NCBI GenBank assembly: GCA_964446235.1
Contig: CAYUNW010000003.1
Span: 7,182 to 71,181, forward strand
Source of the DNA: an uncultured Gammaproteobacteria bacterium
GTDB taxonomy: Bacteria > Patescibacteriota > Microgenomatia > 2-02-FULL-39-11
Direction: 5' to 3'
DNA: 64,000 nucleotides
Shown here: piece after piece, positions 29,364 through 48,899 of the stretch
How positions within the stretch are numbered: position 1 is the stretch's first letter
Layout of the letters: every line of letters begins with the position of its first letter
Notes under the pieces: model-generated
What the model was told of the DNA's origin: nothing
What the model saw: only the letters and a program-made list of their open reading frames with translations
The model's database searches: none
Position numbers and translations under genes: made by a program

Positions 29364-29435
29364 TCCCCTGTAGCTCAACGGTAGAGCAGGAAGCTGTTAA
29401 CTTCAAGGTTCGTGGTTCGAATCCACGCGGGGGAG
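29364..29435 (+). tRNA. tRNA-Asn (anticodon GUU)
   Basis: Acceptor TCCCCTG/CGGGGGA, anticodon loop CTGTTAA, T-arm CGTGGTTCGAATCCACG. Confidence 0.85.
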
Positions 29436-31112
29436 CACTAATGGATTTTGAGTCCAAATTGCCTCTAATTGTTCTGTTGTAAGGCTCTGTTTCTTAGGTT
29501 CGAACAATGCGGATGTCGTCGGTTCGTGTTTTACGATTTCTATAAAGTATTCATACGGTCGTTCCACGTCCAGACGCAATAATTTGTTGAATAATTTTAG
29601 GTTCGAACCGATCGTGATGAGAATCTCACGCTTCTCCTGTAGAGTTCCGTGTTCAAACCAATATCGTGCGTGAACGGCGAAATTAAACGCCTTTTCCGCA
29701 TCCTCCATCCACTTATCAATCCTAAGACTTGTGTTTTTCAATCGTTCCTCAAGCGCTGTCTTTTCTTGTGTCAGTGTCAATTTCTTAGCTTTGAATTCTT
29801 CGTCAGAAAGTAAGGATCCGTCCGAATTTTGTGGAGATATCTTGAGCTTCAATAAATTATCCATCTCGTTTACACAGAGATTATATGAGTTTTGGAGGGA
29901 TGATAGCGTGGCATTTCTATCAGTTACTTCCTGTTCGTTAAGCTCATTGAGATATTTGATCGCCCAATTCTTAAATTCCTCCGAAATGTTTATACGCGAT
30001 AGAATGGTATCGATTTGTGTCTCGATGTCTTTCAAGTGGACGCATCCTTGAGTACAATTCTTGTTTTTACGTTTCGTGCAATGGTAGTAGATGTAATGAA
30101 GAATAGTCGGGTCGTTCATCGATTGAATGGTCGTTTGACACTTCGGACATCGATCTCTGTTTATCGAGGCGAATTTTTGCTTACAATGAGCACAAATTGT
30201 CTGCCATTTTTCCTCTGCCGTTATCATTGCCCCGCATTCTCCGCATGCCATCACACCCGTAAAAGAGAATTCACGAGTATGTGGCTTCGGTGAACCTTTT
30301 CGCTTGAGAAACATCTGGACTCTTTCAAACTCTACTTTGGTAATCATCGGTTTATGGTTTCCTTTGAACCATAACCCGCCTCCTACCGGGAATTCGAATA
30401 GACCATAGTAGAAAGGATCCATAAACATCCTGTATATTTGACTTCTGCACATCGGCTTTCCGCCAATAGATTTTCTTACAGGAGTACGATAGCCCCACTC
30501 GTTATTTAATCTTTCAAGAATTGCCGGAGGTGTGTAAGCACCGGTAAGCATCAAATCCCAACATTTTCTGATTAGAGGGAAACGGTCTGGATCTTCCTTT
30601 ATTGTCTTATTTCCCTTCTCTGCAAACTTGTCGTTCATATAGCCGGGCTTTGCTCCGGATGGAAGCCAGCCCTTCTCCGCTTTAGTTTTCAGTCCTTCTT
30701 TCACATTCTCACCTTTATGATCATTCTCAAATTTTGCCTGCATCATAAAAAAGCCAAGCATAAACTTATCCATTGGGTTATTACGAAAAGTTTGTGTTGG
30801 AGTCCTGACTTCCAGTAGTTTTCCACTGTCCATCAATGAGATAATTGTTGCCGCATCTTGAGGATTTCTTGAGAGCCTGTCCGGATGCCAAACTAATATG
30901 CTGTTTATTTCACCCGTTTCAATGAAGCTAATGAGTTCTCCAAACCCCGGTCTGCCCAGATTTTTTGCAGATTTGGATTCCGAGATAGTGCGAACAATTT
31001 GCAGTTCGTGCTTTTTTGCGACTCCAATAAGCTCTCTTGTTTGAGATTCAATTGACAAAACTTGCCGATCTTCACTCTCCGACGATTTTCTGCAATAAAT
31101 GAAGTATTTCAT
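29403..31112 (-). CDS. Large serine recombinase
   Basis: Resolvase domain YCRKSSESEDRQ..SIESQ..DRLSRN, a recombinase domain, Zn-ribbon CGECG..CAHC..CPKC, and a coiled coil. The last 11 codons read through the tRNA-Asn 3' end. Confidence 0.9.
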   Translation of the reverse strand: MKYFIYCRKSSESEDRQVLSIESQTRELIGVAKKHELQIVRTISESKSAKNLGRPGFGELISFIETGEINSILVWHPDRLSRNPQDAATIISLMDSGKLLEVRTPTQTFRNNPMDKFMLGFFMMQAKFENDHKGENVKEGLKTKAEKGWLPSGAKPGYMNDKFAEKGNKTIKEDPDRFPLIRKCWDLMLTGAYTPPAILERLNNEWGYRTPVRKSIGGKPMCRSQIYRMFMDPFYYGLFEFPVGGGLWFKGNHKPMITKVEFERVQMFLKRKGSPKPHTREFSFTGVMACGECGAMITAEEKWQTICAHCKQKFASINRDRCPKCQTTIQSMNDPTILHYIYYHCTKRKNKNCTQGCVHLKDIETQIDTILSRINISEEFKNWAIKYLNELNEQEVTDRNATLSSLQNSYNLCVNEMDNLLKLKISPQNSDGSLLSDEEFKAKKLTLTQEKTALEERLKNTSLRIDKWMEDAEKAFNFAVHARYWFEHGTLQEKREILITIGSNLKLFNKLLRLDVERPYEYFIEIVKHEPTTSALFEPKKQSLTTEQLEAIWTQNPLVLPRVDSNHEP

Positions 31113-31130
31113 ATCTCTCCTTTCAAAATA

Positions 31131-31214
31131 AATGCCCTCACTGGGTGTGCTCAGACCTGTTAGGATCTGTCCACAATGAGGGCATTAAAAATCCCAACAG
31201 GAATATCTGAGCAC
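31131..31214 (-). promoter_or_regulatory. Interleaved inverted repeats between the HTH gene and the recombinase gene
   Basis: AATGCCCTCA (31131-40) pairs with TGAGGGCATT (31177-86). GTGCTCAGA (31147-55) pairs with TCTGAGCAC (31206-14). On the minus strand the first hairpin is followed by TATTTTG, then an AAAGGAGAG RBS and the ATG. Confidence 0.45.
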
Positions 31215-31221
31215 AAATTTA

Positions 31222-31605
31222 TTATACACCCTTTTTCAAGATCATATTGGTGTTATTTAGATGTATCAAGCCGGAGATTTCAGCCATAACCAACCAAGCA
31301 TTCAGGTTACGCCGGGCAAGTTGAAGACCAATCTTGAGAAGTTCGTGTTTCATCTCCCTCATAAATTCTTCCTCTTGCATTTTTAACCAATCCTTGAAGC
31401 CCGGAATAGCTAACCACGAATAGTAGGTATTTCGATGAATACCGATTTCATCGGCGATTCGAGTCTTCGACGATGTACGAAGCTCAATAGATTTTGCCCA
31501 CCACTTAAACATTGCAGAGGTAGGCACGAATTTGTCGTTTTTTGCACAATTTTGCACAGTTTCGCCCATTTTTGTTTCGATTTGTTCGTCACTCATAATA
31601 GTCAC
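31222..31605 (-). CDS. HTH DNA-binding protein (possible regulator or directionality factor)
   Basis: ..SKTRIADEIGIHRNTYYSWL.. helix-turn-helix, positioned next to the recombinase. Confidence 0.45.
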   Translation of the reverse strand: MTIMSDEQIETKMGETVQNCAKNDKFVPTSAMFKWWAKSIELRTSSKTRIADEIGIHRNTYYSWLAIPGFKDWLKMQEEEFMREMKHELLKIGLQLARRNLNAWLVMAEISGLIHLNNTNMILKKGV

Positions 31606-31662
31606 TGCTTACTTGGAATAGTAAATTTACTATTTATAGTTACTGTTACTATATAGTTACTA

Positions 31663-32037
31663 TCAAAACGGTATTTCATCCGGTGAAACATTTTCACCCA
31701 ATTGGTTCTTCTTGCGTTCACTACCTGTTTTTTCGCAAAAAGCATCAAGGATTGAATCCGCTAAAGTTCTCCATAAAATTTTATCGTCAATATAAAATGC
31801 TCTCTTATATCCATCCTTCCCCTTCTTTGAACGGAAGGCGGGAGGATCGACACATAGTACGGGATCTTTCAACTTATTGAACGTTTTTAGTTTTATAGTG
31901 AACCCGACGACCTTAAATATCATTTGTTCATCCTTATTGAGAAAAATTGCATCCGCAAAACCGACAAGATTTTCACTCTCAATAGCAGTTACTTTGATAT
32001 CAATTTTTTCTATATTCATTTTCATCTCAATTTGCAT
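31663..32037 (-). CDS. SpoVG-like protein
   Basis: IKVTAIESENLVGFADAIF...FKVVGFTI and a later basic segment resemble the SpoVG fold pattern. The resemblance is weak. Confidence 0.35.
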   Translation of the reverse strand: MQIEMKMNIEKIDIKVTAIESENLVGFADAIFLNKDEQMIFKVVGFTIKLKTFNKLKDPVLCVDPPAFRSKKGKDGYKRAFYIDDKILWRTLADSILDAFCEKTGSERKKNQLGENVSPDEIPF

Positions 32038-32045
32038 AGATTCTC

Positions 32046-32276
32046 CTAGTAAGAAAAAATCATTCCTTTAAGAGTTTTAATCGCATCGGCGTATTCCTTT
32101 GCATTGACTATTTCTTCTCGGAACATAAACTTTTTTTGCACCTCTTCGCATTTATGTTTTTCTTCGAAAACAAACCAACATTGTTTACCAACTCGTTCAA
32201 TATCAATCATCTTGATATGTTTGGCGTACCATAGGCTTGCTAGATAGAGATCTTTTGTTTTAGCCGTATCTTTCAT
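32046..32276 (-). CDS. Small hypothetical protein (DUF5659-like pattern)
   Basis: LASLWYAKHIKMIDIERVGKQCWFVFEEK..VNAKEYADAIKTLKGMI. Start chosen at ATG 32276. Confidence 0.35.
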   Translation of the reverse strand: MKDTAKTKDLYLASLWYAKHIKMIDIERVGKQCWFVFEEKHKCEEVQKKFMFREEIVNAKEYADAIKTLKGMIFSY

Positions 32277-32328
32277 ACTTTTATATCGATTCGCCCTTTC
32301 TATAATCACTTGAGACTTATTCTTAGCT

Positions 32329-32559
32329 TCAGGAAAATGCTTCACGCTTCTTTTCCTGAAACGTTTTGGTCTTAATAAGCGAGTTGTACTGTTGTTTGGT
32401 AGGAAAGAAGAGAAATAAAGGACATTGAGTACAAGTACAAACTTGATATCCGTCTGCGAAGTATCCGAAGCATTCAGCACATTTGAGGCGGATGAGGAAT
32501 TTGAGTTGCCTGTTTTCTTCCTTAATGCCGTAGAACTTTTTCAATTTTGCCTTTTTCAT
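32329..32559 (-). CDS. Small Cys-rich (zinc-ribbon-like) protein
   Basis: CAEC..CTCTQC in 76 aa. Confidence 0.3.
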   Translation of the reverse strand: MKKAKLKKFYGIKEENRQLKFLIRLKCAECFGYFADGYQVCTCTQCPLFLFFPTKQQYNSLIKTKTFQEKKREAFS

Positions 32560-32602
32560 ATTCGTTTTAATCTAAAATCGTTATACTTTTTATTATCCAG
32601 CC

Positions 32603-32776
32603 TCAATCCTTATTTTCCTGAGCATTGGGGATAAAGCTGGGAATAGGACGATATATTATTTGGAATAACCTGAAAAGTCTCGTTCCTTGCTCGTCTGCTT
32701 TTTCCGGAGATATTTCTTTGCCAAACGTGCGTTTATATATCCGCCGGTATTCATCTACAGCTTGCTTTGAAAGCAT
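32603..32776 (-). CDS. Small hypothetical protein
   Basis: 57 aa from ATG 32776. The longer track ORF would overlap the upstream gene. Confidence 0.3.
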   Translation of the reverse strand: MLSKQAVDEYRRIYKRTFGKEISPEKADEQGTRLFRLFQIIYRPIPSFIPNAQENKD

Positions 32777-32819
32777 AACTTTCAAATTGTATGATTGCCT
32801 GAATAGAAGGACTTGGAGG

Positions 32820-33629
32820 TTAGCTGGAGATAAGTTGCAAGTAAATTTGCAGATCACATAAACGTGGTAGACGATAGCGATCCTTTAATCTGTAGTAGCG
32901 ATCTTGGAGTTTTTTCACTTCTTGGTCGCTTGTATTCAATTTTTTATCTTCGAGAATAAGTACAATTGCCGGTCTGACAATTCCGAGTTCATCTTCTTTT
33001 TTCCTCGGTAAATTGCTTTTATTACTCTTTTCGTCTTTAATGCACTGCTGGATATTTTTCTCGATGAGTAAATAGTTTTCTATATCTCTATCTTCTTTTG
33101 CTCCTTTTTGTTGGCGAGGCTCTTTTATTGAAAAGAACTTTTTAAACATCGCTTTAGCAAATTCTAAATCCGATATCACCTCCTCTCTTTTTGTATTTGG
33201 AAATACTTGTATATAAATACCTGGTTCAATTATTGGGTTCCCCTGAGGGAATATCATTCTAACTTCGGATCCTAACGAAAAATCCTTAAGAATCATACCC
33301 GTTAGAATATATTCTTCTAGTAAATAAGGATTAAGTTTTATAGAAATAGCAATGACGTGAATGGGACGTAGTAATTCCGATTGAAATCGTTGGTGAGCAA
33401 ATTTATTTCTTTCGCTTTCGACAGTAATATAAGAGAGTTCTTTCTTTATCTGTTCAATTCTACCTTTTGAGTTTTTAAATACCCACTTTACATAGTTTTC
33501 CCGACCATTCTTCAATCCTTTCGAAGGTATTTTAAGTTTTCTTCTTAAAGCTTTAATTACTTCGATTCCTACATAACTTTTGACAAATAATTCGAATCGT
33601 ACAAGATTGTATGGTTTTTCATTTTGCAT
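32820..33629 (-). CDS. Hypothetical protein
   Basis: 269 aa with no motif recognised. Confidence 0.4.
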   Translation of the reverse strand: MQNEKPYNLVRFELFVKSYVGIEVIKALRRKLKIPSKGLKNGRENYVKWVFKNSKGRIEQIKKELSYITVESERNKFAHQRFQSELLRPIHVIAISIKLNPYLLEEYILTGMILKDFSLGSEVRMIFPQGNPIIEPGIYIQVFPNTKREEVISDLEFAKAMFKKFFSIKEPRQQKGAKEDRDIENYLLIEKNIQQCIKDEKSNKSNLPRKKEDELGIVRPAIVLILEDKKLNTSDQEVKKLQDRYYRLKDRYRLPRLCDLQIYLQLISS

Positions 33630-33722
33630 AGATATCTTAATCTAATTTGAGCGTATTATATTATACTGACTGATTATAAGCAGAAGTAGGCAATAGTATG
33701 CACGATTCGAGGCTGAATTGAT

Positions 33723-34382
33723 TTAAGAGAACTTAAGATAGTCCACTTCTTGTTCCCATACAGGATCCAGCTTATTCTCATTCCAGACGAAGCGAAATAA
33801 GTTGTATCCTTTTGAGCAACAAAGTCCCTCACTACCGACTTGATCTGTTTGAATATAAAATCCGTTACCGTCCTTTGATTGTATTATCTTTGCTCTGACT
33901 AAATCTTGGATAGTAAAGATCAGGGTATTTCCCTTATAAATATCTATTCCGTGAGGGGTATGATTCATCCCTTCATTGAAAAGTACCAAAGTTTCATCAA
34001 TACCGTCACTATCAATATCGAATTGTTCGATGGAATTGATCCGCTTTTGTGCTATGTCTCCACTTTTTGAATACTGTTCCTCAATATTTCCGGAAATTGC
34101 TTTATTCAGGTTTTGATAGTTTAATTTTGTTTCTACTTTATGCGGTTTGGATCGTGGGGAATACTGATTTGCATAAGCTGAAATGTCATCCGATCCCCAA
34201 ACTTGTTGGAGATCATCGAAATACTCTTTTGGAATATCAATAATCTCATTTTGTATAGTTGAGCTCAAAAACGACTGAGTTTTATTGAGTTTCACCAATC
34301 TGTGTCCATCATTTTTTCCAAGAGAATATCCAAACAATAATAGTAAAAAAGAACCAGATAGGATTATAAGTATATTCTTCAT
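33723..34382 (-). CDS. Secreted hypothetical protein
   Basis: Signal-peptide-like N-terminus and a DIDSDGIDE calcium-site-like motif. Confidence 0.4.
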   Translation of the reverse strand: MKNILIILSGSFLLLLFGYSLGKNDGHRLVKLNKTQSFLSSTIQNEIIDIPKEYFDDLQQVWGSDDISAYANQYSPRSKPHKVETKLNYQNLNKAISGNIEEQYSKSGDIAQKRINSIEQFDIDSDGIDETLVLFNEGMNHTPHGIDIYKGNTLIFTIQDLVRAKIIQSKDGNGFYIQTDQVGSEGLCCSKGYNLFRFVWNENKLDPVWEQEVDYLKFS

Positions 34383-34392
34383 TTACGTTGAA

Positions 34393-34620
34393 TTATTCTT
34401 TTTCTGGAAATAAGAATTTTTTTAAGTGGTGCCTCAGCCACTCTTTTATATCCTTATGAAAAACTGAATCAACCAAAATAGTCAATGATATTAAAGCTAT
34501 TACAAAAACTACAAAAAGAGATGTTCCGTTTGCGATTGCTTTATCGGCGAAGAGAAAAATACTTATAGACCAAAATATAAGAATGATTATGAGTAATAGA
34601 AGTCCGGACGATAGTTTCAT
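34393..34620 (-). CDS. Small two-TM protein
   Basis: 75 aa with two hydrophobic helices. Confidence 0.35.
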   Translation of the reverse strand: MKLSSGLLLLIIILIFWSISIFLFADKAIANGTSLFVVFVIALISLTILVDSVFHKDIKEWLRHHLKKFLFPEKE

Positions 34621-34649
34621 AAAGAAAGGGACAGCCCTCCTCTCGCTAT

Positions 34650-34734
34650 CAGCCGGTCAGCTTCAAGGTCATCGAGGAAGAGCTGCCCCTTCCGTTGACC
34701 TTGAAGCCACATAAAACGTGCAGCTGACCGGCTG
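34650..34734. other. GC-rich nested inverted-repeat element (candidate structured RNA or DNA site)
   Basis: Three nested stems: CAGCCGGTCAGC/GCTGACCGGCTG, TTCAAGGTCA/TGACCTTGAA and GGAAG/CTTCC, with a 17-nt asymmetric bulge containing CAC..GTG. It sits between divergent genes. Confidence 0.6.
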
Positions 34735-34820
34735 TGTACTTGGATTATACACCAGAAATAACATCGGGAGCATAATATTAGTCTCAAAGCAGTATAATAA
34801 GAGCGAAATTTAGCATTATT

Positions 34821-37800
34821 ATGTTGAACTTAAAAACACCAATTTCGGTTTTACAATTATTAGAATTCCTACAAGAAAAAAGCAGCGTATTCTTGCGTCA
34901 ATTTAGGTATCAAGCGAAGAAAAAAATAAGCCCTCAAGACTTTCTTTCGGGTCGTGTACAAGGTGGTAAATTCCCAAAAGTGATTCGTAGAGATAGGATT
35001 AGTGTTCTTCCACAAAGTTTATCGGATCGATTATTCTTATTCATTTTTAGTCTTTTATTTATTTTTCTGACCGATATTTTAATCAAGCAATGGTTTTCTA
35101 CAAACCTTAAAATCTATTTGGATGGGATTGGATCCTTGGGAAATTTGGGAGCAGCTGCTTGGCAAGTGCTTGCCACTGTAATTTCTGTTGGTTTAGCTAC
35201 GATCGGCATTATATTACAAGCAATTAGCCAAGAAAAAAATGAATATAAACGGAAATTACTATTGCATCATTACTTTACAGTTCAACAGCTTGACTTCAAG
35301 ATTCTTTATTCTTTTTTTGTTTTGATATTAGCTGGTTTAGTACTTCTCTTTAAGGAAAAGATGTTCTTATATCCCTTCTTAAGTGAGCATATTTTTGTTG
35401 TTTTCGCTTTAATAGTTATTTTTGTATATATTTTTGCTCGGTTGATTATAAAGAGTTTTGACTATCTGTTTCCAGAAAACCAGAGTAAATATTTCGACTA
35501 TTCGCTTCAAAATAGATTGTTGTATTTAATCCAAGAATCAGCAAGGAGTTTAATTCTAATTGACGTGCTCCAATTGCAATTAAATTCATTAGAAATGGGG
35601 ATAAGATACTTATATGATGAGCAGGATAAGAAGAAACTAAATATGGCTGTTATAGAAACTTCACAAAAAGGAAGTATCGAAGATATTGATCTTGCATTAT
35701 TAAAAAGTCTGTCTAAATTATTAGGCAAGAAATACATCAAAGAAGAAAAGGGTAAATCACCAGTTAAAGCAGAGTTGTATATTGAATACGGTAGACAAGA
35801 ACAACGTATAAAACAACCTTTAGCTATCGTCCACAAAGATAATTACTCAGATAAAATTGTTCATCTTTTCAAACAAGCAATAATACTATCGACACTTCTT
35901 CCACCTAAAATCGAATATGACTTACAAGAATATCTTGATTGGATATGGGATCAAGTTAGAGAGGATCTGAAAAATGAAAAAGTCGGGGTTATAAAAGATA
36001 ATCTTAGAAATCTATATGACTTTTTTGAAAACTCTTTGACTATTTTTGGTAGTTACAAAAAAGAGTATAAAATCGAGGATGGTGCATCCATAGATAACTG
36101 GGATTTTCTTAATAAGCTTCGTAGACAATATTTCGTAATCCTTGACTCTGCATACGGCAATAAAAGTGCTTTTGAACCGTTATTTTCACTAAATTATTTT
36201 CCGTTCGCGTTGATGCAGAGAGCTATATATCAAAATAATAAAACTCAATTTACTCAATCTTCGGAACTTATTGTTTGGGTGTATAAGTATCTTTTTAAAT
36301 TTAATCATCCGAGACAGAATGATCTAAGAGAAAACTTCTTCTTGACCAACCTTAATTTTGCTCAATTTTATTTACTTGGAGGTCGAGAAGATTTTAAGGA
36401 GAATTTTAATAAGCGGAAATTCTACCTTTGGGTGTATCTAAGAACACAAATAAATATTATTAGAAGAGCATTAGAATTCGGCGACAATAGGACTGTAACT
36501 GAGATTTTATCAATTATTGAAAAACTAATTAAAGAAACATCTTATTGGCAGGAGCAAATACCTTATATAGATCTCAAAGAAAACGTATTAACACCACAAG
36601 AGGAATTTAGGTCAAATTGGTATGCAATGATTCTTGGGGTACAAGCGTGGGTTTTTCAACAATATGAAACCGGGGGTATCGATAGAGATAAATTTAATAT
36701 TCTTGCTTCTGTTTCTTTATGGTCTGATATCTTTAGTTTAACTAACACATTTTCCGTAGCAATTGGGCAAGATCTTGAACACATTATGAGTTGGGACTGG
36801 TGGAGTTTTGAAAAGCGCTCATATCTTAATGATGGAGGTAGTTTTGGTGGGTTTGAAAATGAGATATGCAAATGGTATGTAATTCAGGCAATCAAGCTAT
36901 TATCAAAAGTTCAAGAGAGTGAGATCCCAACACAAAAGAGATTGCTGAAAGATAAAGATACATATTTTAAACTCCTTATATCTCCCAACGGAACAATTTA
37001 TGCATTTCTTGAGTTGTTAAAGAAAGATGGTGATAAATATCTATTTTTATTTAATGATCTCGATAAGAATAGTTTAAACAAAAATATCGAGAAGCTCAAA
37101 AACTACCTAAAACTGACTCTAGAAGATAATGAGGTCTCGAAGAAAAACGCTCTTATTAGCGCTTCGATTGAAAATAGCAAAATAAACAAGTTCAAACAGA
37201 GTTTTATCTCAGGATATGAAAAGAATTCAAAAATTAGAAAAATTGCCAAAACCAAGAAAATTGTTACTTTAGCTTTGAAACAAACAGGGAAACCCTTTTT
37301 TGGTATCCACGTCCTATTAGACAAAGAACCCTTTACTTCATTATCTATAATGGATTATGACACTATAGCAGAGCATTACGGTCAGCAAATGGCTGATGTT
37401 GAAGATTACTTGATTATTAAAGAAATCTTCAACTCTAAAAATCCAACTACCAAACTCTCATACAATGCTTCAAATGTAAAATTAAAGCTGGATGCATATT
37501 TATCAACGATTGATAAAAACCAAATAAAAAGCACGTATATTTTAATCTTAGGGAGTGCGACTCTTCGTCACGAACTTCATAGAGATCCTGAATATAAGTG
37601 GTCAGGAGGTAAAAGCAATAGAATCACATTCGATGAATATAAAGGTATTAAAATATATTGGACAAATATTGGTAAGGAAAACGGCGTAGTTGTGGTGGAT
37701 ATGAAAAATGCGTTTAAAGTAGTCCAGAAAAAGCCCAATATAGAGAAGGGTGAAATGATTTCAAAAGACAAGCATATAGCTTTTCTTATAGCTCAACTAA

Positions 37801-37976: not shown

Positions 37977-38018
37977 TTTCAATGCTATTAGTAGAACTAA
38001 TTCAAAATGAGGATATTT

Positions 38019-38489
38019 TTACAGATCTTTATTGGCAAGCATATCACGAACTTTGATTCCTGCTTTTTTGTATCTCTCCCAACCTACGATTCCCTCATTA
38101 ATTTTACTCAATCGATCGTGTTCTTCTTCGGTAACAAGGTATCCGATTGCTCTCTGTAGGATTTTCTCAAGGTTATCCGGATTATCAAGTATTTCAGAAA
38201 TAAGTTGTTTTCTGGTGTAGACGTGTTCGTGTTGAACCTTACCATCCTTTTCATTTAATACTCCTTCTGATCTATACCTTATCCTATACTTTCCATTCGT
38301 ACTGTTGCCGTGGGCTTCCGTAATCTTCCAGATCATAACGGAAATGACTTCTTTTTTGTGCCGGAGGATTACGTTCTTATTCTTAACGACAGATCGGATA
38401 ACTTCGCTTGCGCTCTGTTTGGTTTTCTCTGTTTCCAGATCTTCGATATACATTTCTTTCAGACCTTTGAGCTTGGATTTATACGGCAT
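38019..38489 (-). CDS. Hypothetical protein coupled to the upstream nuclease gene
   Basis: 156 aa with conserved-looking ..VQHEHVYTRKQL.. and ..LVTEEEHDRL..GWERYKKAGI segments. 3-nt gap to the 38493-39461 gene. Confidence 0.4.
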   Translation of the reverse strand: MPYKSKLKGLKEMYIEDLETEKTKQSASEVIRSVVKNKNVILRHKKEVISVMIWKITEAHGNSTNGKYRIRYRSEGVLNEKDGKVQHEHVYTRKQLISEILDNPDNLEKILQRAIGYLVTEEEHDRLSKINEGIVGWERYKKAGIKVRDMLANKDL

Positions 38490-38492
38490 AGG

Positions 38493-39461
38493 TTATTTCC
38501 CATCTTTAGTATCTCGATAAAGAAACTTGTAAGATTCGACCGACAGCCTAACCGCTTCTGGTATTTGTGATTCAGCATTTAAATAAATGTAGCTGATACC
38601 ATTGGTCCAATGCCCCTTTTTACTGCAATCCTCGATTATTAGGGTGGATTCCAAGTATTTAACCGGGAAGCGGTAATAAATTTTCAATCCCTGTTGCTGG
38701 GGAACGATCTCAACATAATTCACCCATTCTTTCCCTCTGTGCCCGGAATACGCGATGTACTGTTTCGTGTATTTTGTGCGGGTTTCAATATTATTTTTGA
38801 GCAGTTGATTCTCAAACTCCTCAAGAAGTTCCCGGCTATCTGTCCAGCTTGGTTTCGCTACATCATCAAGGGTATATACTTTGACTTCCTTGAGTACATT
38901 TTGCGTGGTTTTGTCTTTCGAGAATTTCCCAATGGGCTCGCTAGTCCTGTATGGTTTTATAGGGTTGTAGAGAATAGTATGATTATCGTACAGTTTTGCT
39001 TCATAAAGATAGATTGGTAGATCCTTGAAGTTGATGGCGTTTTTCTGATAATTGGTGAATTCTGGGGAGACAAAAATTACACGGGATGACTCCCAATCGA
39101 TATCCTTCTTTGTGAAGTTTTTATGAAGCCTTTCGTTCAACTCAAGAACGAAATCTGCTTTGTGGTTAAGCATAGCGGAAAGATACGCAAATCCCTGATC
39201 TATAACACTAAAACTTTTGTCTTTTTTGTATTCGATGATGATAAACGACTTTTGTGCTTCATCGAAAGCGAGGGTATCGATATAGAAGTCCTGTTCTTGT
39301 GCTCGAATACTGAATTCTTGATTGAGTGATCCGCTCACAAATTTTAAACCGAAGATTGTATCGAGATTCTTTTCAGTCAGACTTTGAATGTCGTTTTCAA
39401 GATTAAACTTCTTTTCCGAAATCTCCTTTAACTTGTCATTGCTGATAGAAAAGATAGACAT
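38493..39461 (-). CDS. PD-(D/E)xK nuclease-fold protein (NucS/DUF4268-like)
   Basis: YIDTLAFDEAQKSFIIIEYKKDKSFSVIDQGFAYLSAM gives the D..ExK..Q..Y core. Confidence 0.55.
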   Translation of the reverse strand: MSIFSISNDKLKEISEKKFNLENDIQSLTEKNLDTIFGLKFVSGSLNQEFSIRAQEQDFYIDTLAFDEAQKSFIIIEYKKDKSFSVIDQGFAYLSAMLNHKADFVLELNERLHKNFTKKDIDWESSRVIFVSPEFTNYQKNAINFKDLPIYLYEAKLYDNHTILYNPIKPYRTSEPIGKFSKDKTTQNVLKEVKVYTLDDVAKPSWTDSRELLEEFENQLLKNNIETRTKYTKQYIAYSGHRGKEWVNYVEIVPQQQGLKIYYRFPVKYLESTLIIEDCSKKGHWTNGISYIYLNAESQIPEAVRLSVESYKFLYRDTKDGK

Positions 39462-39599
39462 ATAGGGTGTATTATACCCTTTTCCCTATCAGGAGACTAA
39501 GATGAGTTGAATTATTCAAGAACGTTCAACTTTCGAATAGGTAAAACTTATATAAAGACATACTAAGATTATATAAATAATTGCAATCCTTACATCAAT

Positions 39600-39827
39600 A
39601 TGGTAGAGTATCTTACGATGGAAACAAGACATTTAAGATTCAAAAGACTTGCTTTAAGGCGAACGAATATGATCTTGGAAAAATTGAGAATACTGGGAAA
39701 TCTGGCAAATAAAAGTTCTTACAGCTATTCCGATCAAGAAGTAGATAAGATATTTAAGGCGATCGAAGATCAGCTTAGAACGGTCAAGGCAAGATTTAAG
39801 CCGAGAAAAAGACGATTTAAGTTTTAA
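39600..39827 (+). CDS. Small basic protein
   Basis: 75 aa, Arg/Lys-rich. First gene of the plus-strand operon. Confidence 0.35.
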   Translation: MVEYLTMETRHLRFKRLALRRTNMILEKLRILGNLANKSSYSYSDQEVDKIFKAIEDQLRTVKARFKPRKRRFKF

Positions 39828-39853
39828 AACCTATAATTGATTATTAAATTAAG

Positions 39854-40486
39854 ATGAAAATGAAATTTCCAGAAGAAAACCTACCTCGGTGGCAAAAAAT
39901 ACTCCTTGTGCTTTATGAGTTGTCCGGAGAACATAAAAAACAGTTAAAGTTCGAAGATATTGTAGTTGCGGCATATAAACGATTCCCCGAAACATTTCAC
40001 TTGAGAGGATATAAAGAGTATCCCGATTCCGGGGATTTGATTCATAAGCCACTTTACGATATGCGACCCCGAGGTTTTTTAACAGCCAATCAAAAAATGT
40101 TCTCTTTGACGGAAAAAGGAATACTTGCGGCAAAACAACTCAATAAGGCGATTAAAAGAGGCGGAGAAGCCCATTTCAAACCTTCGAGAGAAATAGGCAA
40201 AGAGATAGAACGTATTCTTTCGACAGATGCTTTCATATTTTTCAAAGAGAAAAAGACGGATAAAATCCTCGACACCGATTTTTTGCAATATCTCGGAGTT
40301 AGCGTGCACACCAGCAAAAACGAATTCCGAAACAGACTGGATACGGTAAAATATGCCGTCGATTCAGCCAAATCATTCTATCCGACACAAACTTGTAAGA
40401 GTTTATCGGAATATCACGGGTTTATGTTGCGACGATTCGATCAGTTAATGAGAGAAATGTCGGAACAAAAGGAAAGAAACGTATGA
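39854..40486 (+). CDS. Hypothetical protein (winged-helix-like N-terminus)
   Basis: 210 aa. Its stop overlaps the next start (ATGA). Confidence 0.4.
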   Translation: MKMKFPEENLPRWQKILLVLYELSGEHKKQLKFEDIVVAAYKRFPETFHLRGYKEYPDSGDLIHKPLYDMRPRGFLTANQKMFSLTEKGILAAKQLNKAIKRGGEAHFKPSREIGKEIERILSTDAFIFFKEKKTDKILDTDFLQYLGVSVHTSKNEFRNRLDTVKYAVDSAKSFYPTQTCKSLSEYHGFMLRRFDQLMREMSEQKERNV

Positions 40487-42312
40487 GTATTCAGACATAC
40501 AAAATCGTTGAAGAGAAAAATGAAATGGACGATCATTTTCTCGATATTATCGGTAACGAGTTTAAATTCGATCACCAGAAAGGAATGGCGGAACTGATCA
40601 AAAACTCGGTTGCCGCTTATATCAGAGAAGAGATGCCTTCTGAAAAACAATTTCTCTTTTTAAGATATACGGACAGTGATAACGGTAATGCTCTTATGGA
40701 ATGTGTCGATTTTGTCGGTATGTCTTCCGATCATATCGTATTGGCATTCAAACGTTGGGGCGACCCTAAGGCGGCTTCTTATGGTTATGGAAAGAGAGTA
40801 CCTGGCGGACACGGTAACGGAGGCAAGTTTTATATGCGCCAAATGTTTAAGGAGTCTTATTTTATAACCTATAAGAACGGAAAACTGAATATATACGGAT
40901 TCAGTCCCAATAGAAAATACGGATTTGCCAATCAATTTAAAGACGTATCGATGCGTCCGATCGAGGCAATAAAATTCGCCGGGCTCTCCTCATTGCCGAT
41001 TCCGAAAGAAGTGGTTGACAAAATTTTGCAGGGGAAAACAGGTTTTACAGTTGTAAGAGGAATAGGACCCTTTCAAATGGTGAACAAAATTCAGGCTTAT
41101 CGTATTTCGGAGAAGTTGCGGAATCATCCTCAGGTCAGAAAACACTTGGAAAGAATAAACACTACGGTTATTCATAACGGAAAGGTAATTTTCGATCGAT
41201 TAGTACCAGATAAATTAGCCCCTAAGCCCGGTTTCGAAGGACCGTATGTATATGAAATACCCGAGGAATTATCTTACACCGAAGGCGGTGAAGTGAATAA
41301 AGTAGTTATGGCGAATAAAAAGTATCCTCGGGGGAAACTGATATTGCATACTTCCGATGAGGCTTTGGAACGAGGTGGAAGATTCGGAGAGTTAAATAGA
41401 ATAGATGTCTTGGGAGAAACAGGTCCCATCGCTTCCTATCATATGTATGAGTTGGGAGTAAATCTTTATCCCCAGTACGTATTTATTCACGGTGACTGCG
41501 AGTGTCTTATTCTCGAAGATCCGGACGACGATTGTGTTAAGAACGACAGATCAAAGTTGATAGCCGAAAATCCAAAAACCAAAGCGCTTTTACAGTGGCT
41601 CGGAGAAAGGGTAAACGAATTGGCGGAAAAAATCCTCGATAAAGAAAGAGAAGAACAGAAAAAAATGGAAAAGGAACAGTCTAAATCCTATAACGATTTG
41701 CTGAATCGATGGAGTGCGAAATTCTTAAATAGAATAAGAGCGGAATTATTGGTCGGACCCGGTATCGGACCGGGAATAGGATTCGGAACAGAAGGATCTT
41801 CAGGCGGATTGGGAGAGGGAAAGGGAGGCGAGAACGGGGATAAAGGTGGAGGAGAAGGAAATAAAGAAGGAGGCGGAAATACGGTAAAAAGACAGTCAAG
41901 ATCTCCTAAAGTATTATTATCAGGTATCGATACGGACCCGTTTAATCCGAGCAACGAACCTTTATTTCTTGATCCCCGGCAAGGAATTATTTATCAGCGA
42001 ATACAAGATGTTCGTGAAGGAATCTATTGGATAAATACCGCAAGTCCTTTGGCAAAGGCGGTGCTGGACAAATTTACGGAAAAATCGCAGCAATGGAGAT
42101 CGTATCTTTTTCAAAGACACGTGGATATTCTGATTAAAGAAGAAATGCGTAATCTATACAAGCGGGATTCCGAACGCTTCAACCCCGATGCCATAGATGC
42201 TGAGATATTCGGCGGTTTTATGCTGAAAATACAAGAAGCAGCCTCAAAAGACCTGGAAAGTTTCCTGCTCGCAGAACAATATGACCCAGAAAGAGAAAAC
42301 AAGAAGATATAA
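40483..42312 (+). CDS. GHKL-type (HATPase_c_3/MORC-like) ATPase with Gly-rich low-complexity segment
   Basis: N-box-like AELIKNSVAA, DFVGMS, and G2-like GGHGNGGKFYMRQMF. Residues about 425-465 read GPGIGPGIGFGTEGSSGGLGEGKGGENGDKGGGEGNKEGGGN. Confidence 0.55.
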   Translation: MSIQTYKIVEEKNEMDDHFLDIIGNEFKFDHQKGMAELIKNSVAAYIREEMPSEKQFLFLRYTDSDNGNALMECVDFVGMSSDHIVLAFKRWGDPKAASYGYGKRVPGGHGNGGKFYMRQMFKESYFITYKNGKLNIYGFSPNRKYGFANQFKDVSMRPIEAIKFAGLSSLPIPKEVVDKILQGKTGFTVVRGIGPFQMVNKIQAYRISEKLRNHPQVRKHLERINTTVIHNGKVIFDRLVPDKLAPKPGFEGPYVYEIPEELSYTEGGEVNKVVMANKKYPRGKLILHTSDEALERGGRFGELNRIDVLGETGPIASYHMYELGVNLYPQYVFIHGDCECLILEDPDDDCVKNDRSKLIAENPKTKALLQWLGERVNELAEKILDKEREEQKKMEKEQSKSYNDLLNRWSAKFLNRIRAELLVGPGIGPGIGFGTEGSSGGLGEGKGGENGDKGGGEGNKEGGGNTVKRQSRSPKVLLSGIDTDPFNPSNEPLFLDPRQGIIYQRIQDVREGIYWINTASPLAKAVLDKFTEKSQQWRSYLFQRHVDILIKEEMRNLYKRDSERFNPDAIDAEIFGGFMLKIQEAASKDLESFLLAEQYDPERENKKI

Positions 42313-43204
42313 GAAGCGGAAAAAGTCGCCGGAAGTGTACGGTTTGAATCTCGCAAGAGATGAAGAAGTAACGGCTTTATACCGAAGCGGTTTAACACTA
42401 CAACAAATAGGAAATAAATACGGAATCACAAGATCACGTATTCAACAAATCGTTTTTAGGACTCTACGCAGAAAGATTGTAAGCGAAATAAGACACCGCC
42501 TTAGAACAAACCCTGATAGAATGCCCATAAAGATCTTGGTTAAAGAGGAAATTAAGAGAATTCGAAACACGAAGCGAGAAAAGTGGTTAAAAACCAAGTT
42601 GATTGAAAAAGCGGAAAAAGGAATCGTCCCCGAAAAATTCACTTCGGAATTGAAGTTTGCTTCCGCGTTGGGTCTTCCGATTGAAATAATACGAGAATTT
42701 GCTCCGGATTTGATTACCGTGATCAAAAATAATAAAACCACGGGATATGGAGGTAGAAAATGGAGTAGACATTATTTACGTTGCAGAATGTGCGGCACAA
42801 TTAGTGTTCCTCATAAAATGTGGGGATGTTGCGAAAACTGTTATTATAAAACTGAAAATTTTAAAGAAATACAAGCTGCTTCGAGGTTAAGGAACCTGCA
42901 TAGATGGCTTCCAAAACAGCGAAAGTATCAATTGGAACATTACGATAAAGTAAACTATGGAGGAAATAGAAAAAAGGTGCTCGATCGAGACGGGTATAAA
43001 TGCATAAAATGTTCGGTTACGGAAGAAGAGAGTATAGAACGATACGACGAGAGACTAAGAGTAGTTCATTTGGGAGCGATTGAAAATAACGAATTGGACA
43101 ATTTGGCAACATTTTGTCGAAATTGTTGGATGAAACAACTGAGGAAAAGAAGGACAATCAAGCAAACCGATACGCAAAATCGTCAATCACCGGCGATTCG
43201 ATAG
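42281..43204 (+). CDS. Sigma-70 region-4-like HTH fused to an HNH endonuclease domain
   Basis: N-terminus LYRSGLTLQQIGNKYGITRSRIQQIV. C-terminus DRDGYKCIKC..LRVVHL..N..DNLATFCRNCW. Confidence 0.6.
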   Translation: MTQKEKTRRYKKRKKSPEVYGLNLARDEEVTALYRSGLTLQQIGNKYGITRSRIQQIVFRTLRRKIVSEIRHRLRTNPDRMPIKILVKEEIKRIRNTKREKWLKTKLIEKAEKGIVPEKFTSELKFASALGLPIEIIREFAPDLITVIKNNKTTGYGGRKWSRHYLRCRMCGTISVPHKMWGCCENCYYKTENFKEIQAASRLRNLHRWLPKQRKYQLEHYDKVNYGGNRKKVLDRDGYKCIKCSVTEEESIERYDERLRVVHLGAIENNELDNLATFCRNCWMKQLRKRRTIKQTDTQNRQSPAIR

Positions 43205-44195
43205 ATTCCGCCTTTATTTGTTTCTTAGACGGCTTCAAAAATCTGATTATTCTTCGTGCAATAGCTTCAACTACCGGAACGGAAACGGTATTGCCGAATT
43301 GTTTGTATGCCTGATTGTCGGAAACGGGGATTTTATAATCTTCCGGAAAGCCTTGTAATCTTGCGCATTCTCTTGGAGTAAGTGTTCTGAGTCCCAAACA
43401 GTTCTTTGCAGATTTATTCATTCCTTCCCTGTAGAAATATTCTCTGATCGGTTCTTTAATCAGATTTCTTTCCCTTCCCATTCGTCCGACTACGAGAGAG
43501 TTCGCAGTTCCGTTCAGATCGACCACTTCGTAACCCCAACCGTGACCCTTCGCTCTATGGTAGGCTTTATGTCGAGCCAAACACTCATAATATCTTTGAG
43601 ATATAAAGTATTTTACGTCTGCTTCTTCCTTTTCCAAAATATCCCCGACCTTTAATTTTTCGCCCGTCGGTTCGGGAAAATCGAAATTCACCTTTTTACT
43701 GAAACCTACAATATAAATGCGTTCTCTATTTTGCGGCAACCCGAAGTCTTTGCTGTTTATAACCTTATAAAATATATGATAACCCAATTTGTTCACCAAA
43801 ATATCTTTAATCACTCCGAATGTTTCTCCTCGATGGTGTCTCTCAAGAAACTTAACATTCTCGAGGAAAAATGCTTTAGGTATCTTATCGGTTAAAATAC
43901 GCTCGATTTGAAAGAACAAATTTCCTCTGGGGTCTTCAAACCCCTTTTTTCCTCCCGCCAAGGAGAAGGGTTGACAGGGAAAGCCAGCAAGCAGGATATC
44001 GAAATCCGGTATTTCGGAAGAAGGAACATCTTTTATATCCCTTTGATCGATATCTCCGAAATTTGTACGGTAGGTTTGACAACAATAGCGATCGATTTCG
44101 TTCGAATATGCGATTTTGAATCCCGCACGTTCGAATCCCAAACGTATCCCTCCTATTCCGGCAAATAAATCGACAGCTTTTAACCTATGGATCAT
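43158..44195 (-). CDS. dcm: DNA (cytosine-5)-methyltransferase
   Basis: DLFAGIGG, GFPCQPFS, ENV, QNRERIY, TPRECARLQGFP. Confidence 0.95.
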   Translation of the reverse strand: MIHRLKAVDLFAGIGGIRLGFERAGFKIAYSNEIDRYCCQTYRTNFGDIDQRDIKDVPSSEIPDFDILLAGFPCQPFSLAGGKKGFEDPRGNLFFQIERILTDKIPKAFFLENVKFLERHHRGETFGVIKDILVNKLGYHIFYKVINSKDFGLPQNRERIYIVGFSKKVNFDFPEPTGEKLKVGDILEKEEADVKYFISQRYYECLARHKAYHRAKGHGWGYEVVDLNGTANSLVVGRMGRERNLIKEPIREYFYREGMNKSAKNCLGLRTLTPRECARLQGFPEDYKIPVSDNQAYKQFGNTVSVPVVEAIARRIIRFLKPSKKQIKAESIESPVIDDFAYRFA

Positions 44196-44230
44196 AAAAC
44201 TATAATATACCTTAAAAATAACCAGTTCAA

Positions 44231-44665
44231 TTGACCAATTTGATTATGAGCGATATATTTTCCTCTCAAAAAAGAAGCGAAATAATGTCAAAGGTTAAGT
44301 CCAGAAATACTAATATTGAACTTCTCCTCAGACGGGCATTGTTTAGAAAAGGATACCGATTCAGATTGCATTATCGTATCTCCGGTACTCCGGACATTGT
44401 ATTGCCTTCCAAAAAGATTGCTATATTTTGTGATGGTGATTTTTGGCATGGTAAACATTTTAAACGAGAAAACATAAATTACAAAAAATTCTGGAAAAAT
44501 AAAATAAAAGCCAACATAATACGAGATAAAAAAGTGAATACCAAATTGCGTAAAGATGGGTGGAAAGTGATAAGATTTTGGAAGTCGGAAATTCTCAAGA
44601 ATCTCGATCGTTGTGTGGATACAATCGAACAAACTCTTGAGAAATTAAATAATAGCAAAGCTTGA
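44231..44665 (+). CDS. vsr: Very-short-patch repair endonuclease
   Basis: RSEIMSKVKSRNT.IE, PDIVLP..KIAIFCDGDFWHG. Confidence 0.9.
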   Translation: MTNLIMSDIFSSQKRSEIMSKVKSRNTNIELLLRRALFRKGYRFRLHYRISGTPDIVLPSKKIAIFCDGDFWHGKHFKRENINYKKFWKNKIKANIIRDKKVNTKLRKDGWKVIRFWKSEILKNLDRCVDTIEQTLEKLNNSKA

Positions 44666-44733
44666 TTAAACACGTTTATGACCTTCATTTCTTGGAATAG
44701 TATTGTTCTCAATGGTTAAAAAGAAATGTCTGT

Positions 44734-44825
44734 AAAAGTTTCGGATGTTATCCATCTCCCGGAGCTAACAAATTGGGAGCAATACAACGCTCCTTTTTTT
44801 TGTAACCCAATAGGACGATAAAATT
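44734..44825 (+). repeat. Intergenic repeat family, copy A
   Basis: aaaagtttcggatgttatcc..gggagcaatacaacgctccTTTTTTTTgt..taggacgataaaatt. Confidence 0.75.
44776..44801 (+). terminator. Intrinsic terminator within repeat copy A
   Basis: GGAGC-aatacaac-GCTCC followed by T8, downstream of vsr. Confidence 0.6.
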
Positions 44826-44999
44826 AGTTTAGTATTTTCTCACAGTTTGTTTCTTCTTCTATTATTTACCAGTGAACTTAATCACAGGAGATTTATACAG
44901 CAACATGGATGATTTCATACGAGGAAAAAAAGTACTAGTGAGGTATAATATGGTGGTTGCGATGAAGCTCGCATAATCCCAAATTATAATCTGGGTGAT

Positions 45000-45031
45000 A
45001 GCTTCTACTTTTTACGGTAGAAGCTTTTTTT
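45000..45031 (+). terminator. Strong hairpin plus T-run ending 8 nt before the dynamin-like start codon
   Basis: AGCTTCTAC-tttttacg-GTAGAAGCT followed by a T-run. Confidence 0.6.
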
Positions 45032-46772: not shown

Positions 46773-46848
46773 AAAAATATAGCAAACATGAACTATTTCG
46801 TATCAAAATTTAAATATAATCTTTGAATATGAATAGAATTAATTGAAT

Positions 46849-46922
46849 AAAAGTAGTTCCTGATTTCGTACATCAGGTGGAATACAAGATTTAAAGGGAA
46901 TGTTACAACGCTCCTTTTTGTT
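46849..46922 (+). repeat. Intergenic repeat family, copy C
   Basis: aaaagtagttcc-CCTGATttcgtacATCAGG-..gggaatgttacaacgctccTTTTTgtt. Confidence 0.7.
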
Positions 46923-46944
46923 ATATTTTTGATATAATAAGTTA

Positions 46945-47496: not shown

Positions 47497-47507
47497 ACAG
47501 TAATCCC

Positions 47508-47612
47508 TTAAGTAGTTCCTTATTTCATCCACTGGATCGGACTAGGTAATAAGCAAGACTAGCGGGAATCAAATTAAACGCGGGAGAAATATTTACGGGA
47601 TAATTAGTTTAT
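47508..47612 (+). repeat. Intergenic repeat family, copy D
   Basis: ttaagtagttcc..ATCCAcTGGAT..cgcgggag..gggataattagtttatt. Confidence 0.6.
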
Positions 47613-47643
47613 TACTATACTACTCTTGACTAATCGTCTCAAA

Positions 47644-48770: not shown

Positions 48771-48861
48771 CCTAACAGTTCGGATAATATCCACTAGGGG
48801 GAGCCAAATAATTAGGAGCATTACGACGGTCTTTTTTTGTTCCCTAGTAGGACGATAGAAC
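48771..48861 (+). repeat. Intergenic repeat family, copy B
   Basis: cctaacagttcggataatatccactagggggagcc..aggagcattacgacggtcTTTTTTTgt..taggacgatagaac. Its 5' part resembles the tRNA-Asn 3' end. Confidence 0.75.
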
Positions 48862-48899
48862 TTTTTTCATTGACTTGTATCTAATTATCTATATAATAT

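Follow-up and report, generated by a model that had tools for sequence, protein, structure and literature searches.

The locus described here raises the question of how about 15 kb of DNA came to lie directly against a tRNA-Asn gene, beside a recombinase gene whose open reading frame (ORF) ends inside the tRNA. It belongs to a 64,000-nucleotide (nt) stretch of contig CAYUNW010000003.1 (assembly GCA_964446235.1), here called the window, to which all coordinates refer. An earlier note, made from the DNA letters alone, had proposed an integrated element at tRNA-Asn driven by a large serine recombinase (LSR), neither an obvious prophage nor an integrative and conjugative element (ICE). This proposal is borne out by both junctions, by the rejoined ends and by relatives that lack the element. 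With a probability of roughly 0.85, positions 29433-44763 are a 15.3-kb integrative element, placed by the LSR at tRNA-Asn in a Gottesmanbacteria-like genome of the candidate phyla radiation (CPR). The note overlooked that an ORF extending into the tRNA marks an entire family of recombinases and is no local oddity.

The recombinase gene ends inside tRNA-Asn

The tRNA-Asn(GUU) gene occupies 29364-29436 on the forward strand (ARAGORN, anticodon gtt; Rfam score 63.6 bits over 29364-29435); it is a host gene and forms the B arm of the attachment site. Convergent with it, an LSR of 569 amino acids (aa) is encoded at 29403-31112 on the reverse strand, and its ORF shares 34 nt with the tRNA, stop codon included (33 nt if the tRNA end given by Rfam is used). 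The protein C-terminus reads ...QNPLVLPRVDSNHEP*, of which the last 9 residues (PRVDSNHEP) come from tRNA sequence. ARAGORN, Rfam and the ORF agree with the earlier note both on the 569-aa recombinase abutting tRNA-Asn and on the frame that continues into the tRNA 3' end.

The domain set named in that note (resolvase, recombinase, Zn-ribbon and coiled-coil) is recovered by Pfam, partly with marginal scores, and by AlphaFold and Foldseek. The Resolvase domain is matched at E 3.9e-27; R8, S10, R79 and R82 are invariant across 36 aligned family members, and eight cysteines are invariant in the family alignment. The AlphaFold model (pLDDT, the model's own confidence score, 77.5) comprises a catalytic domain, helix E, a recombinase domain and zinc-ribbon strands, with strands at 288-345 and helices 389-424 and 437-488 that form a long helical hairpin (389-488); the final 11 residues are disordered. 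In Foldseek searches the model matches the full-length SPbeta integrase (9dxd/9dxh; E about 1e-20 over about 550 columns) and also phiC31, Bxb1 and 4KIS, and in the PDB the family profile finds SPbeta SprA and the recombinase domain of A118. Matches to Ccr models of NCBIfam are weak (44-54 bits, against equivalog cut-offs of 700-900). Judged by sequence profile and predicted fold, the 569-aa protein is a genuine LSR, and it is presumably active as a recombinase. Serine integrases catalyse recombination between attP and attB, and need a directionality factor for excision.

The two ends of the element rejoin as attB and attP

The sole sequence common to attL and attR, the left and right attachment sites, is GGAGC (29432-29436 and 44761-44765). 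In attL, ...GGTTCGAATCCACGCGGGGGAGC|ACTAATGGATTTTGAG, the presumed crossover dinucleotide GA of this core lies at 29433-29434, corresponding to tRNA positions 71-72, and the core is followed by the P' arm (29437-29462, reverse strand), which is embedded in the last codons of the recombinase gene (..IWTQNPLV). In attR, ...GGATGTTATCCATCTCCCGGAGC|TAACAAATTGGGAGCAATACAACGCTCCTTTTTTTT, the GA lies at 44762-44763. To the left of this core is the P arm (44737-44760), a profile hit which, together with a reconstructed 31-codon reading frame, makes up the reverse-strand segment 44667-44760. To its right, the B' arm (44766-44804, forward strand) is the native trailer of the tRNA, with a hairpin at 44775-44794 followed by T8 (terminator scan). 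The length of the element is 15,329 bp.

Joining the left side of attR to the right side of attL reconstructs attP as ATCCAtctcccgGAgcactaaTGGAT, an imperfect palindrome with the dyad centre GA; the attL core coincides with the dyad centre of ATCC/GGAT in this sequence. An excised circle would carry the junction string ...GGATGTTATCCATCTCCCGGAGCACTAATGGATTTTGAGTCC.... Joining the tRNA to the right side of attR reconstructs attB, which consists of an intact tRNA-Asn followed directly by the hairpin and T8, with the junction string ...GGTTCGAATCCACGCGGGGGAGCTAACAAATTGGGAGCAATAC... for an empty site. The earlier note had placed the right end at 44.7-44.8 kb and had suggested rebuilding attB and attP from there and from 29.40 kb; the core at 44761-44765 falls in that range, and the rebuilt sites are a tRNA with its terminator and a palindromic attP.

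The right end was located with a weight matrix for the P arm, built from the sequence that follows the recombinase gene in 15 tRNA-less loci of the family (see below) and scanned over both strands of the window. The best match in the whole window lies at 44764-44737 on the reverse strand and scores 23.7 (200 shuffles: mean 12.5, maximum 20.2); its position and orientation are those predicted for the right end. A direct repeat of the tRNA 3' end was ruled out as right boundary: with up to 3 mismatches allowed, no copy of the tRNA 3' end occurs elsewhere in the window, as is expected of a serine recombinase.

In the reconstructed attP, the recombinase ORF remains open for 31 further codons (REMDNIRNFYRHFFLTIENNTIPRNEGHKRV) and its stop adjoins the vsr stop codon, so that the protein of 569 aa in the integrated state has a 591-aa counterpart in the attP form.

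A recombinase family that targets tRNA 3' ends with one geometry

The 120 closest proteins are 51-67% identical to the recombinase and mostly end in LPRVDSNHEP, LPREDSNLEP, LPRLDSNQQP or similar sequences. The DSN peptide is encoded by GATTCGAAC, which is the T-loop in reverse complement. Among these 120 C-termini, 57 are T-arm-encoded peptides, 40 extend just two codons into the acceptor stem before the stop, and about 17 are of other kinds. At E 1e-20 there are more than 4,700 database matches to the recombinase, some of them other serine recombinases; the relatives come mostly from CPR bacteria, and thousands of them appear to share one att geometry.

We collected 80 metagenome loci of the family, with a family alignment (L numbers denote loci). 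A convergent tRNA is present at the 3' end of the recombinase gene in 35 of the 80, with tRNA-Asn in 14, tRNA-Gln in 12, tRNA-Ser in 4, and Trp, His, Glu, Met and Arg once each. At 6 more loci the recombinase enters the 3' half of a tRNA-Asn that has a group I intron in the anticodon loop, which brings the loci that abut a tRNA to at least 41 of 80, all in one fixed register. Such tRNA-Asn(GUU) genes, split in the anticodon loop by the intron, are found in L020 (11729-11965) and L086 (2255-2517), where the intron matches Rfam RF00028 with 86 and 80 bits, and also in L010, L067, L071 and L083; ARAGORN misses these tRNAs, and the elements still lie at their 3' ends.

At a further 15 of the 80 loci, the recombinase runs on into a conserved non-tRNA sequence with the consensus ..GGAYnnnGTTCGAACCT, which we take to be the P arm of an intact attP. 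The two classes of loci differ in the spacing of one motif. TCGAAC begins at a distance of 15 nt from the first base of the core in 31 of 31 tRNA-joined loci, and 20 nt from the core in 13 of 15 tRNA-less loci; the 20-nt spacing also applies to the attR arm of the window and to a second site at 48.8 kb described below. For the A118/LI integrase, attB has the motif of the zinc-ribbon domain (ZD) closer to its centre than attP does, by 5 bp, a rule that was proposed for other LSRs as well (PMC3783163), and the offsets of 15 and 20 nt agree with this shift.

The opposite arm is conserved in a way that ties protein to DNA. The P' half-site ARTCC-N5-TGC inside the recombinase ORFs is invariant at the DNA level across the family: its variable codon is AAT in 27 cases, AGT in 19 and AAC in none, and the third base is T in 51 of 51, while asparagine codons elsewhere in the same genes are AAT 733 times and AAC 613 times. 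Because the half-site is constrained at the DNA level, the protein motif QNP is largely its image.

The P-arm matrix also finds correctly oriented P arms upstream of the recombinase in L009, L010, L087, L045, L021 and L080, which delimits elements of 7.6 kb (L009) and 8.7 kb (L010); L021 and L080 have two P arms each. The integrated elements that could be delimited measure 7-15 kb. In the recombinase frame, all far-end P arms encode open tails of the form L..[VLM][DN].[VFI]RT., and the exchange of tails by an attP inside the ORF can also be reconstructed at other loci of the family. The attP-form tail is well conserved in one subclade only (VRTWIxENxxxFxxPSF); the first 9 residues of the tail coincide with the DNA half-site.

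Could the overlap of ORF and tRNA merely reflect a chance lack of stop codons, the DNA having entered by another route such as a tyrosine integrase that has since been lost? Members of the family do differ in how many residues the tRNA encodes (2 to more than 13), so that selection probably does not act on the extension as protein. The register between the last conserved recombinase codons and the tRNA 3' end is nevertheless identical at 31 of 31 loci with at least 8 tRNA species, the tRNA-derived direct repeat is absent, there is no tyrosine integrase ORF, and the far end bears the arm predicted from the recombinase family. The family data already contradict such an origin, which we consider extremely improbable.

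Relatives outside the clade also lie near tRNA genes. Distant relatives of the recombinase on IMG/VR contigs (L098, L106, L109, L113, L124, L126, L130 and L131; 33-40% identical over the first 380 residues) have convergent tRNAs shortly downstream, often at the end of the contig. Targeting of tRNAs may therefore extend beyond the recombinase clade studied here. In L003, which comes from a genome related to that of the window, tRNA-Ser(tga) at 16125-16214 is entered by the reading frame of a weak homologue (16152-16730, reverse strand) of the recombinase C-terminal region.

We propose that the LSR joined an attP, overlapping the 3' end of its own gene, to an attB composed of the T-arm, the 3' acceptor strand and the trailer of tRNA-Asn. 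Strand exchange would take place at the GA of GGAGC, tRNA positions 71-72, and would therefore leave the tRNA sequence unchanged and create no long direct repeat. One recombinase subunit would read the T-loop motif TTCGAAC, at 15 nt from the core in the tRNA arm and at 20 nt in the attP arm, and this 5-bp shift would distinguish attB from attP as in known serine integrases. Because attP lies inside the ORF, a free circle would encode the 591-aa protein with its own 31-aa tail, and the integrated copy would encode 569 aa, ending in the 9 tRNA-encoded residues. The anatomy of the element, its att-site geometry, the pattern across the family and the absence from relatives (below) are observed directly; recombinase activity, the exact crossover bases, the way of excision and the passage between cells are presumed, and the tail and a 57-aa partner protein (see below) may have a role.

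Relatives without the element and points against the proposal

The element is flanked on the left by dnaG, rpoD, an EamA transporter gene and an MGMT-like gene, and on the right by genes for a dynamin-like GTPase, YecM and Fic. These flanking genes have their closest homologues in Candidatus Gottesmanbacteria (CPR, Patescibacteria). Three relatives (L093, L094 and L096) encode an RpoD that is 86% identical and retain the gene order GHMP kinase, PPS, dnaG, rpoD. In L093 and L094, tRNA-Asn lies a few hundred bases downstream of rpoD, as in the window; in L096 it is about 7.6 kb away on the opposite strand. Neither the recombinase nor any gene of the 15 kb is present there in any of the three. 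The pattern that the earlier note named as counter-evidence, the same 15 kb in a syntenic position in relatives without the recombinase, is thus not observed. The tRNA-Asn was ruled out as part of the element, since relatives have it after rpoD without the element.

The empty tRNA-Asn site that the note suggested looking for in close relatives is found to the extent that these three relatives lack the element, but not at the level of bases. Downstream of tRNA-Asn, they differ from one another and from the window, so that an empty site cannot be aligned base by base. The dynamin gene had been considered as a marker of a syntenic right flank and was dropped, as the copies in relatives sit in unrelated contexts.

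Several observations weigh against the element as we describe it. The nearest relatives with an unoccupied tRNA-Asn share none of the right-flank genes. Neither an empty site nor an attP circle or excision junction was found: the three public contigs with exactly the same proteins (look-ups with the recombinase, the MGMT-like and the dynamin-like proteins) are all occupied and 100% identical, and the attP junction is absent from the viral contigs of IMG/VR. The Pfam Recombinase and Zn-ribbon matches of the LSR are slightly below their cut-offs (20.9 and 20.6 bits). The P arm of the window matches TCGAAC at only 4 of 6 positions (CCGAAA). Finally, the site at 48.8 kb resembles the right attachment site at 44.8 kb (below attR1) on both sides of the core, a likeness that the simple model does not predict.

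Three of these points, namely the invariably occupied contigs, the missing attP junction and the P arm that departs from the family motif at 2 of 6 positions, would also fit a fixed relic: a single integration whose recombinase no longer excises and which is now ordinary chromosomal DNA. However, the recombinase ORF is undamaged and retains the family-invariant residues R8 and S10, the two arms and the common core are preserved, and the attP-form ORF is still open. The sampling covers a single population, so little can be concluded from the lack of empty sites. A relic of this kind seems quite unlikely to us.

Searches of phage and plasmid collections gave no match to near-identical DNA, and no close relative of the recombinase was found in viral contigs.

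Elsewhere on the left side, the window contains a tmRNA gene (10935-11335; Rfam, 120.6 bits) followed by a cluster of five tRNA genes (12099-16093; three Ser, two Arg); the whole window has seven tRNA genes. Between tRNA-Ser(GGA) and tRNA-Ser(UGA), the stretch 17000-22400 is of very low GC content (0.24-0.31) and carries PqqD-like, ScmC-like, Orn/Arg-decarboxylase-like and FMN-dehydrogenase-like genes. This segment could represent a further island or a cluster for peptide modification. To the right of the element, at 44940-45030, a promoter-like TATAAT followed by a strong terminator with a 10-bp stem (45000-45025) lies just upstream of the dynamin-like gene and could correspond to a small RNA or a leader; Rfam has no match in this segment.

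Cargo of the element

The genes that the element shares with other loci of the family are few: the recombinase, a DUF5659 protein (at two loci) and a 57-aa protein. The last is a helical protein encoded at 32603-32776 (reverse strand) that is conserved and travels with the recombinase family. In tblastn searches it was found at 40 of the 75 loci with room upstream, and at 28 directly upstream of the recombinase on the same strand, with the consensus LSxxAIxEFKxIYxxEFGxxLSDxEAxExGxxLLxLFxxIYRPIP. Pfam, PHROGs, NCBIfam and the PDB contain nothing that matches it. We regard it as a candidate accessory or directionality factor. The DUF5659 protein (32046-32480, reverse strand; Pfam, E 1.7e-6) has homologues near the recombinase in L011 and L092.

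Two modules of about 6.5 kb in total are of defence type. The first, at 38019-39461 on the reverse strand, consists of a 156-aa orphan and a 322-aa PDDEXK-like protein (38493-39461; PDLC04945, E 5.5e-87; HSDR_N_2, E 4.6e-6), the latter corresponding to PADLOC candidate PDC-S18. The second combines Dcm, Vsr and an HNH protein with a weak BbrUII/HgiDII-like match. Its methylase and mismatch endonuclease genes occupy 43158-44665: Dcm, a C5-cytosine methylase, at 43158-44195 on the reverse strand (Pfam, E 1.6e-96) and Vsr at 44231-44665 on the forward strand (Pfam, E 1.3e-25), with NCBIfam dcm and vsr in agreement. Beside them, a forward-strand operon of four genes (39600-43204) encodes proteins of 75, 210, 609 and 307 aa. 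The last (42281-43204) joins a sigma-r4 helix-turn-helix (HTH) to HNH (PHROG 8446, E 9e-7; ZorE, E 5e-4). The 609-aa protein has a weak match to the BbrUII/HgiDII restriction family (E 0.0015) and one hypothetical plasmid match, and no match in Pfam or to a PDB sequence.

The remaining cargo (32820-37976) encodes orphans of 269 aa, 219 aa (signal-peptide-like) and 75 aa (membrane), and a 1051-aa membrane protein; Pfam, PHROGs, PADLOC and NCBIfam give no match for any of them. The earlier description of the cargo as orphans with nuclease, ATPase and methylase modules holds for the orphans, the nuclease and the methylase; the ATPase is unconfirmed, as the 609-aa protein is without a Pfam match. 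The two modules are the basis for the term 'defence island'; most genes are without an assignable function. PDC-S18 has candidate status only, the assignments of Dcm and Vsr are certain, their cognate nuclease is only suggested, and about half of the genes cannot be assigned.

In composition, the element is less AT-rich than its flanks, as the note had stated, but the difference is small (GC 36.8% against 34.7% and 32.9%, with one cargo gene at 32%). The sliding-window comparison that it suggested shows a real but modest shift: between 27.5 and 42.5 kb, tetranucleotide usage is at a greater distance from that of the flanks, but the same is true of the dnaG/rpoD window.

The element might instead be a decayed prophage, or a phage satellite that is packaged by a helper CPR phage, and not a self-contained defence island. 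Some loci of the family do point towards phages. The L026 recombinase, in attP form, shares its 43.5-kb contig with head-protease and terminase-like genes, which indicates that elements of more than one kind use the family and that some of its members are phage integrases; a weak Terminase_2 match lies near the L092 recombinase, and the IMG/VR contigs with the distant relatives mentioned above end at tRNAs. Within the element itself, the gene next to the recombinase (31222-31605, reverse strand) encodes a 127-aa HTH protein (Pfam HTH_Tnp_1_2, E 2.7e-7) with weak similarity to small-terminase HTH families of PHROGs (E about 1e-6). This similarity is limited to an HTH of about 50 residues (44-98), and, with a holin match at E 0.007, it is the sole phage-like match in the element. 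Capsid, portal, tail, large terminase, lysis and replication genes were not detected in the 15 kb (PHROGs and Pfam, ORFs of at least 57 aa), no packaging ATPase was detected in the cargo, and we judge a prophage or satellite origin to be unlikely. Neither Pfam nor NCBIfam gives a match to a relaxase, a coupling protein or a type IV secretion system in the 15 kb, and Pfam detects no tyrosine integrase (Phage_integrase domain). Apart from the HTH similarity to small terminases, the Pfam, PHROG and NCBIfam scans support the note in its statement that capsid, terminase, tail and conjugation genes are missing.

A second attR-like site and tandem arrays

A second attR-like site is located at 48776-48868 on the forward strand; in it, a P-type arm is followed by GGAGC and then by a degenerate copy of the tRNA trailer. 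The site scores 16.4 with the P-arm matrix, the third best match in the window, and compared with attR1 it is identical at 17 of 24 positions on the P side and 48 of 64 on the B' (trailer) side. Between the two sites lies the block of genes for the dynamin-like GTPase, YecM and Fic (45039-48714, forward strand; Pfam), which may be an older cassette without a recombinase. We considered whether the two trailer copies could be a dispersed terminator repeat and ruled this out, as there is just one further 16-nt match, at 46904.

The island may thus be a composite: the mobile unit would be, or would once have been, 19.4 kb long and extend from the tRNA to the 48.8-kb site, with the dynamin/YecM/Fic block as an older recombinase-less cassette that was pushed outward, as in tandem arrays of staphylococcal cassette chromosome (SCC) elements. 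The correct 20-nt spacing of the P-type arm, the GGAGC and a trailer that is 73% identical to that of attR1 all speak for this, and tandem P arms recur in L021 and L080. Relatives carry the dynamin gene in different contexts, once right after a tRNA-Ser; in L003 the dynamin-like gene directly follows tRNA-Ser(GGA).

True tandem arrays with two recombinases occur at tRNA-Asn in L091 and L092. There, a different LSR of 496 aa (L091 18467-19957, L092 16802-18289) also ends inside tRNA-Asn (..LPRRDSNSQHPL*), and its element, with SpoVG, HTH_17 and restriction-modification or Erm-like genes as cargo, lies between tRNA-Asn and an element of the family studied here, whose recombinase reads into the P arm of the newcomer. 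Non-tRNA tails such as LVDxFRNREIEF were first considered as signs of free elements; this was ruled out, as the tails in L091 and L092 stem from the second element between recombinase and tRNA.

Several features of the window do not fit a composite of this type. The GC content of the dynamin/YecM/Fic block is host-like (34.0%) and the block has no recombinase; moreover, a plain tandem array predicts the P' arm of the older element to the right of attR1, and not a copy of the host trailer. The duplicated trailer thus goes beyond a plain tandem array, and possible explanations are an older cassette with a trailer-mimicking end, a second tRNA-Asn that has been lost, or an insertion by homologous recombination. 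We consider a composite island a real possibility, although not the probable one, and retain the 15.3-kb element that ends at attR1 as the preferred description.

Relation to known systems and significance

tRNA genes are the classic landing sites of tyrosine integrases, and serine integrases are generally described at protein-coding or intergenic sites. With the phage LSRs (phiC31, Bxb1, A118/LI and SPbeta SprA) the window enzyme shares the order of catalytic domain, recombinase domain and zinc ribbon with coiled-coil, and its predicted fold matches the SPbeta integrase over the full length, although sequence identity to solved LSR enzymes is only 13-20%. The att sites are likewise short, form imperfect palindromes about a 2-bp centre and lack a long repeat, and attB has the distal motif 5 bp closer to its centre than attP does (PMC3783163). 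In contrast to these enzymes, the window family targets tRNA 3' ends and not a protein-coding gene or an intergenic site, its related enzymes use many tRNAs through the shared T-loop, and attP lies inside the 3' end of the integrase ORF, so that the C-terminus changes upon integration.

A parallel in arrangement may be drawn with SCCmec, where the LSRs CcrAB or CcrC insert an island at the very 3' end of a conserved housekeeping gene and leave the gene undamaged, and where composite arrays contain tandem units, some of them without a recombinase. The window element differs in that its target is a tRNA and not rlmH, it has a single recombinase gene, and this gene is not a Ccr equivalog. Islands placed by tyrosine integrases (P4-type, many ICEs and integrative mobilizable elements) also insert at tRNA 3' ends, with the integrase gene adjoining the tRNA, accessory and defence genes as cargo and stacking at one tRNA. 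The enzyme family and chemistry are different, however, and tyrosine systems leave a tRNA duplication of 15-50 nt, whereas the ends of the window element share 5 nt only. Among streptococcal elements, tRNA targets belong to tyrosine integrases (PMC5357655).

An attP within an ORF is known from mycobacteriophages such as BPs and Brujita, in which it lies inside the repressor gene and integration replaces the C-terminus of the protein (PMC3694055). In these phages, the protein is a repressor, the enzyme a tyrosine recombinase, and the removed degradation tag has a demonstrated function. In the window, the gene encodes the serine integrase itself and a function of the tail is only proposed. Full-text literature searches yielded no description of an LSR family that targets tRNA genes, nor of such integrases from CPR bacteria, and the family is apparently undescribed. 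What is new lies in the recombinase family, which uses the tRNA T-arm as attB, obeys the geometry rule of LSRs and has its attP inside its own gene; the island itself is an otherwise ordinary small carrier of cargo.

We tentatively speculate that a CPR-wide LSR clade has adopted the conserved T-arm of tRNAs as its attB motif and is retargeted from one tRNA to another solely through its reading of the acceptor stem. The tail swap might sense the free or integrated state and help to set directionality, with the 57-aa protein as the directionality factor. As a whole, this scheme is doubtful.

Mobile elements of CPR bacteria are poorly known. The geometry of the family provides sequence rules for locating the ends of elements in CPR genomes, where comparison of close genomes is rarely possible. 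The family also represents a natural set of serine integrases whose short targets (Asn, Gln, Ser and other tRNAs) are related without being the same, and this set lends itself to studies of how specificity changes. Serine integrases are widely used for genome engineering, and a family whose recognition motif occurs in almost every tRNA gene could have practical value.

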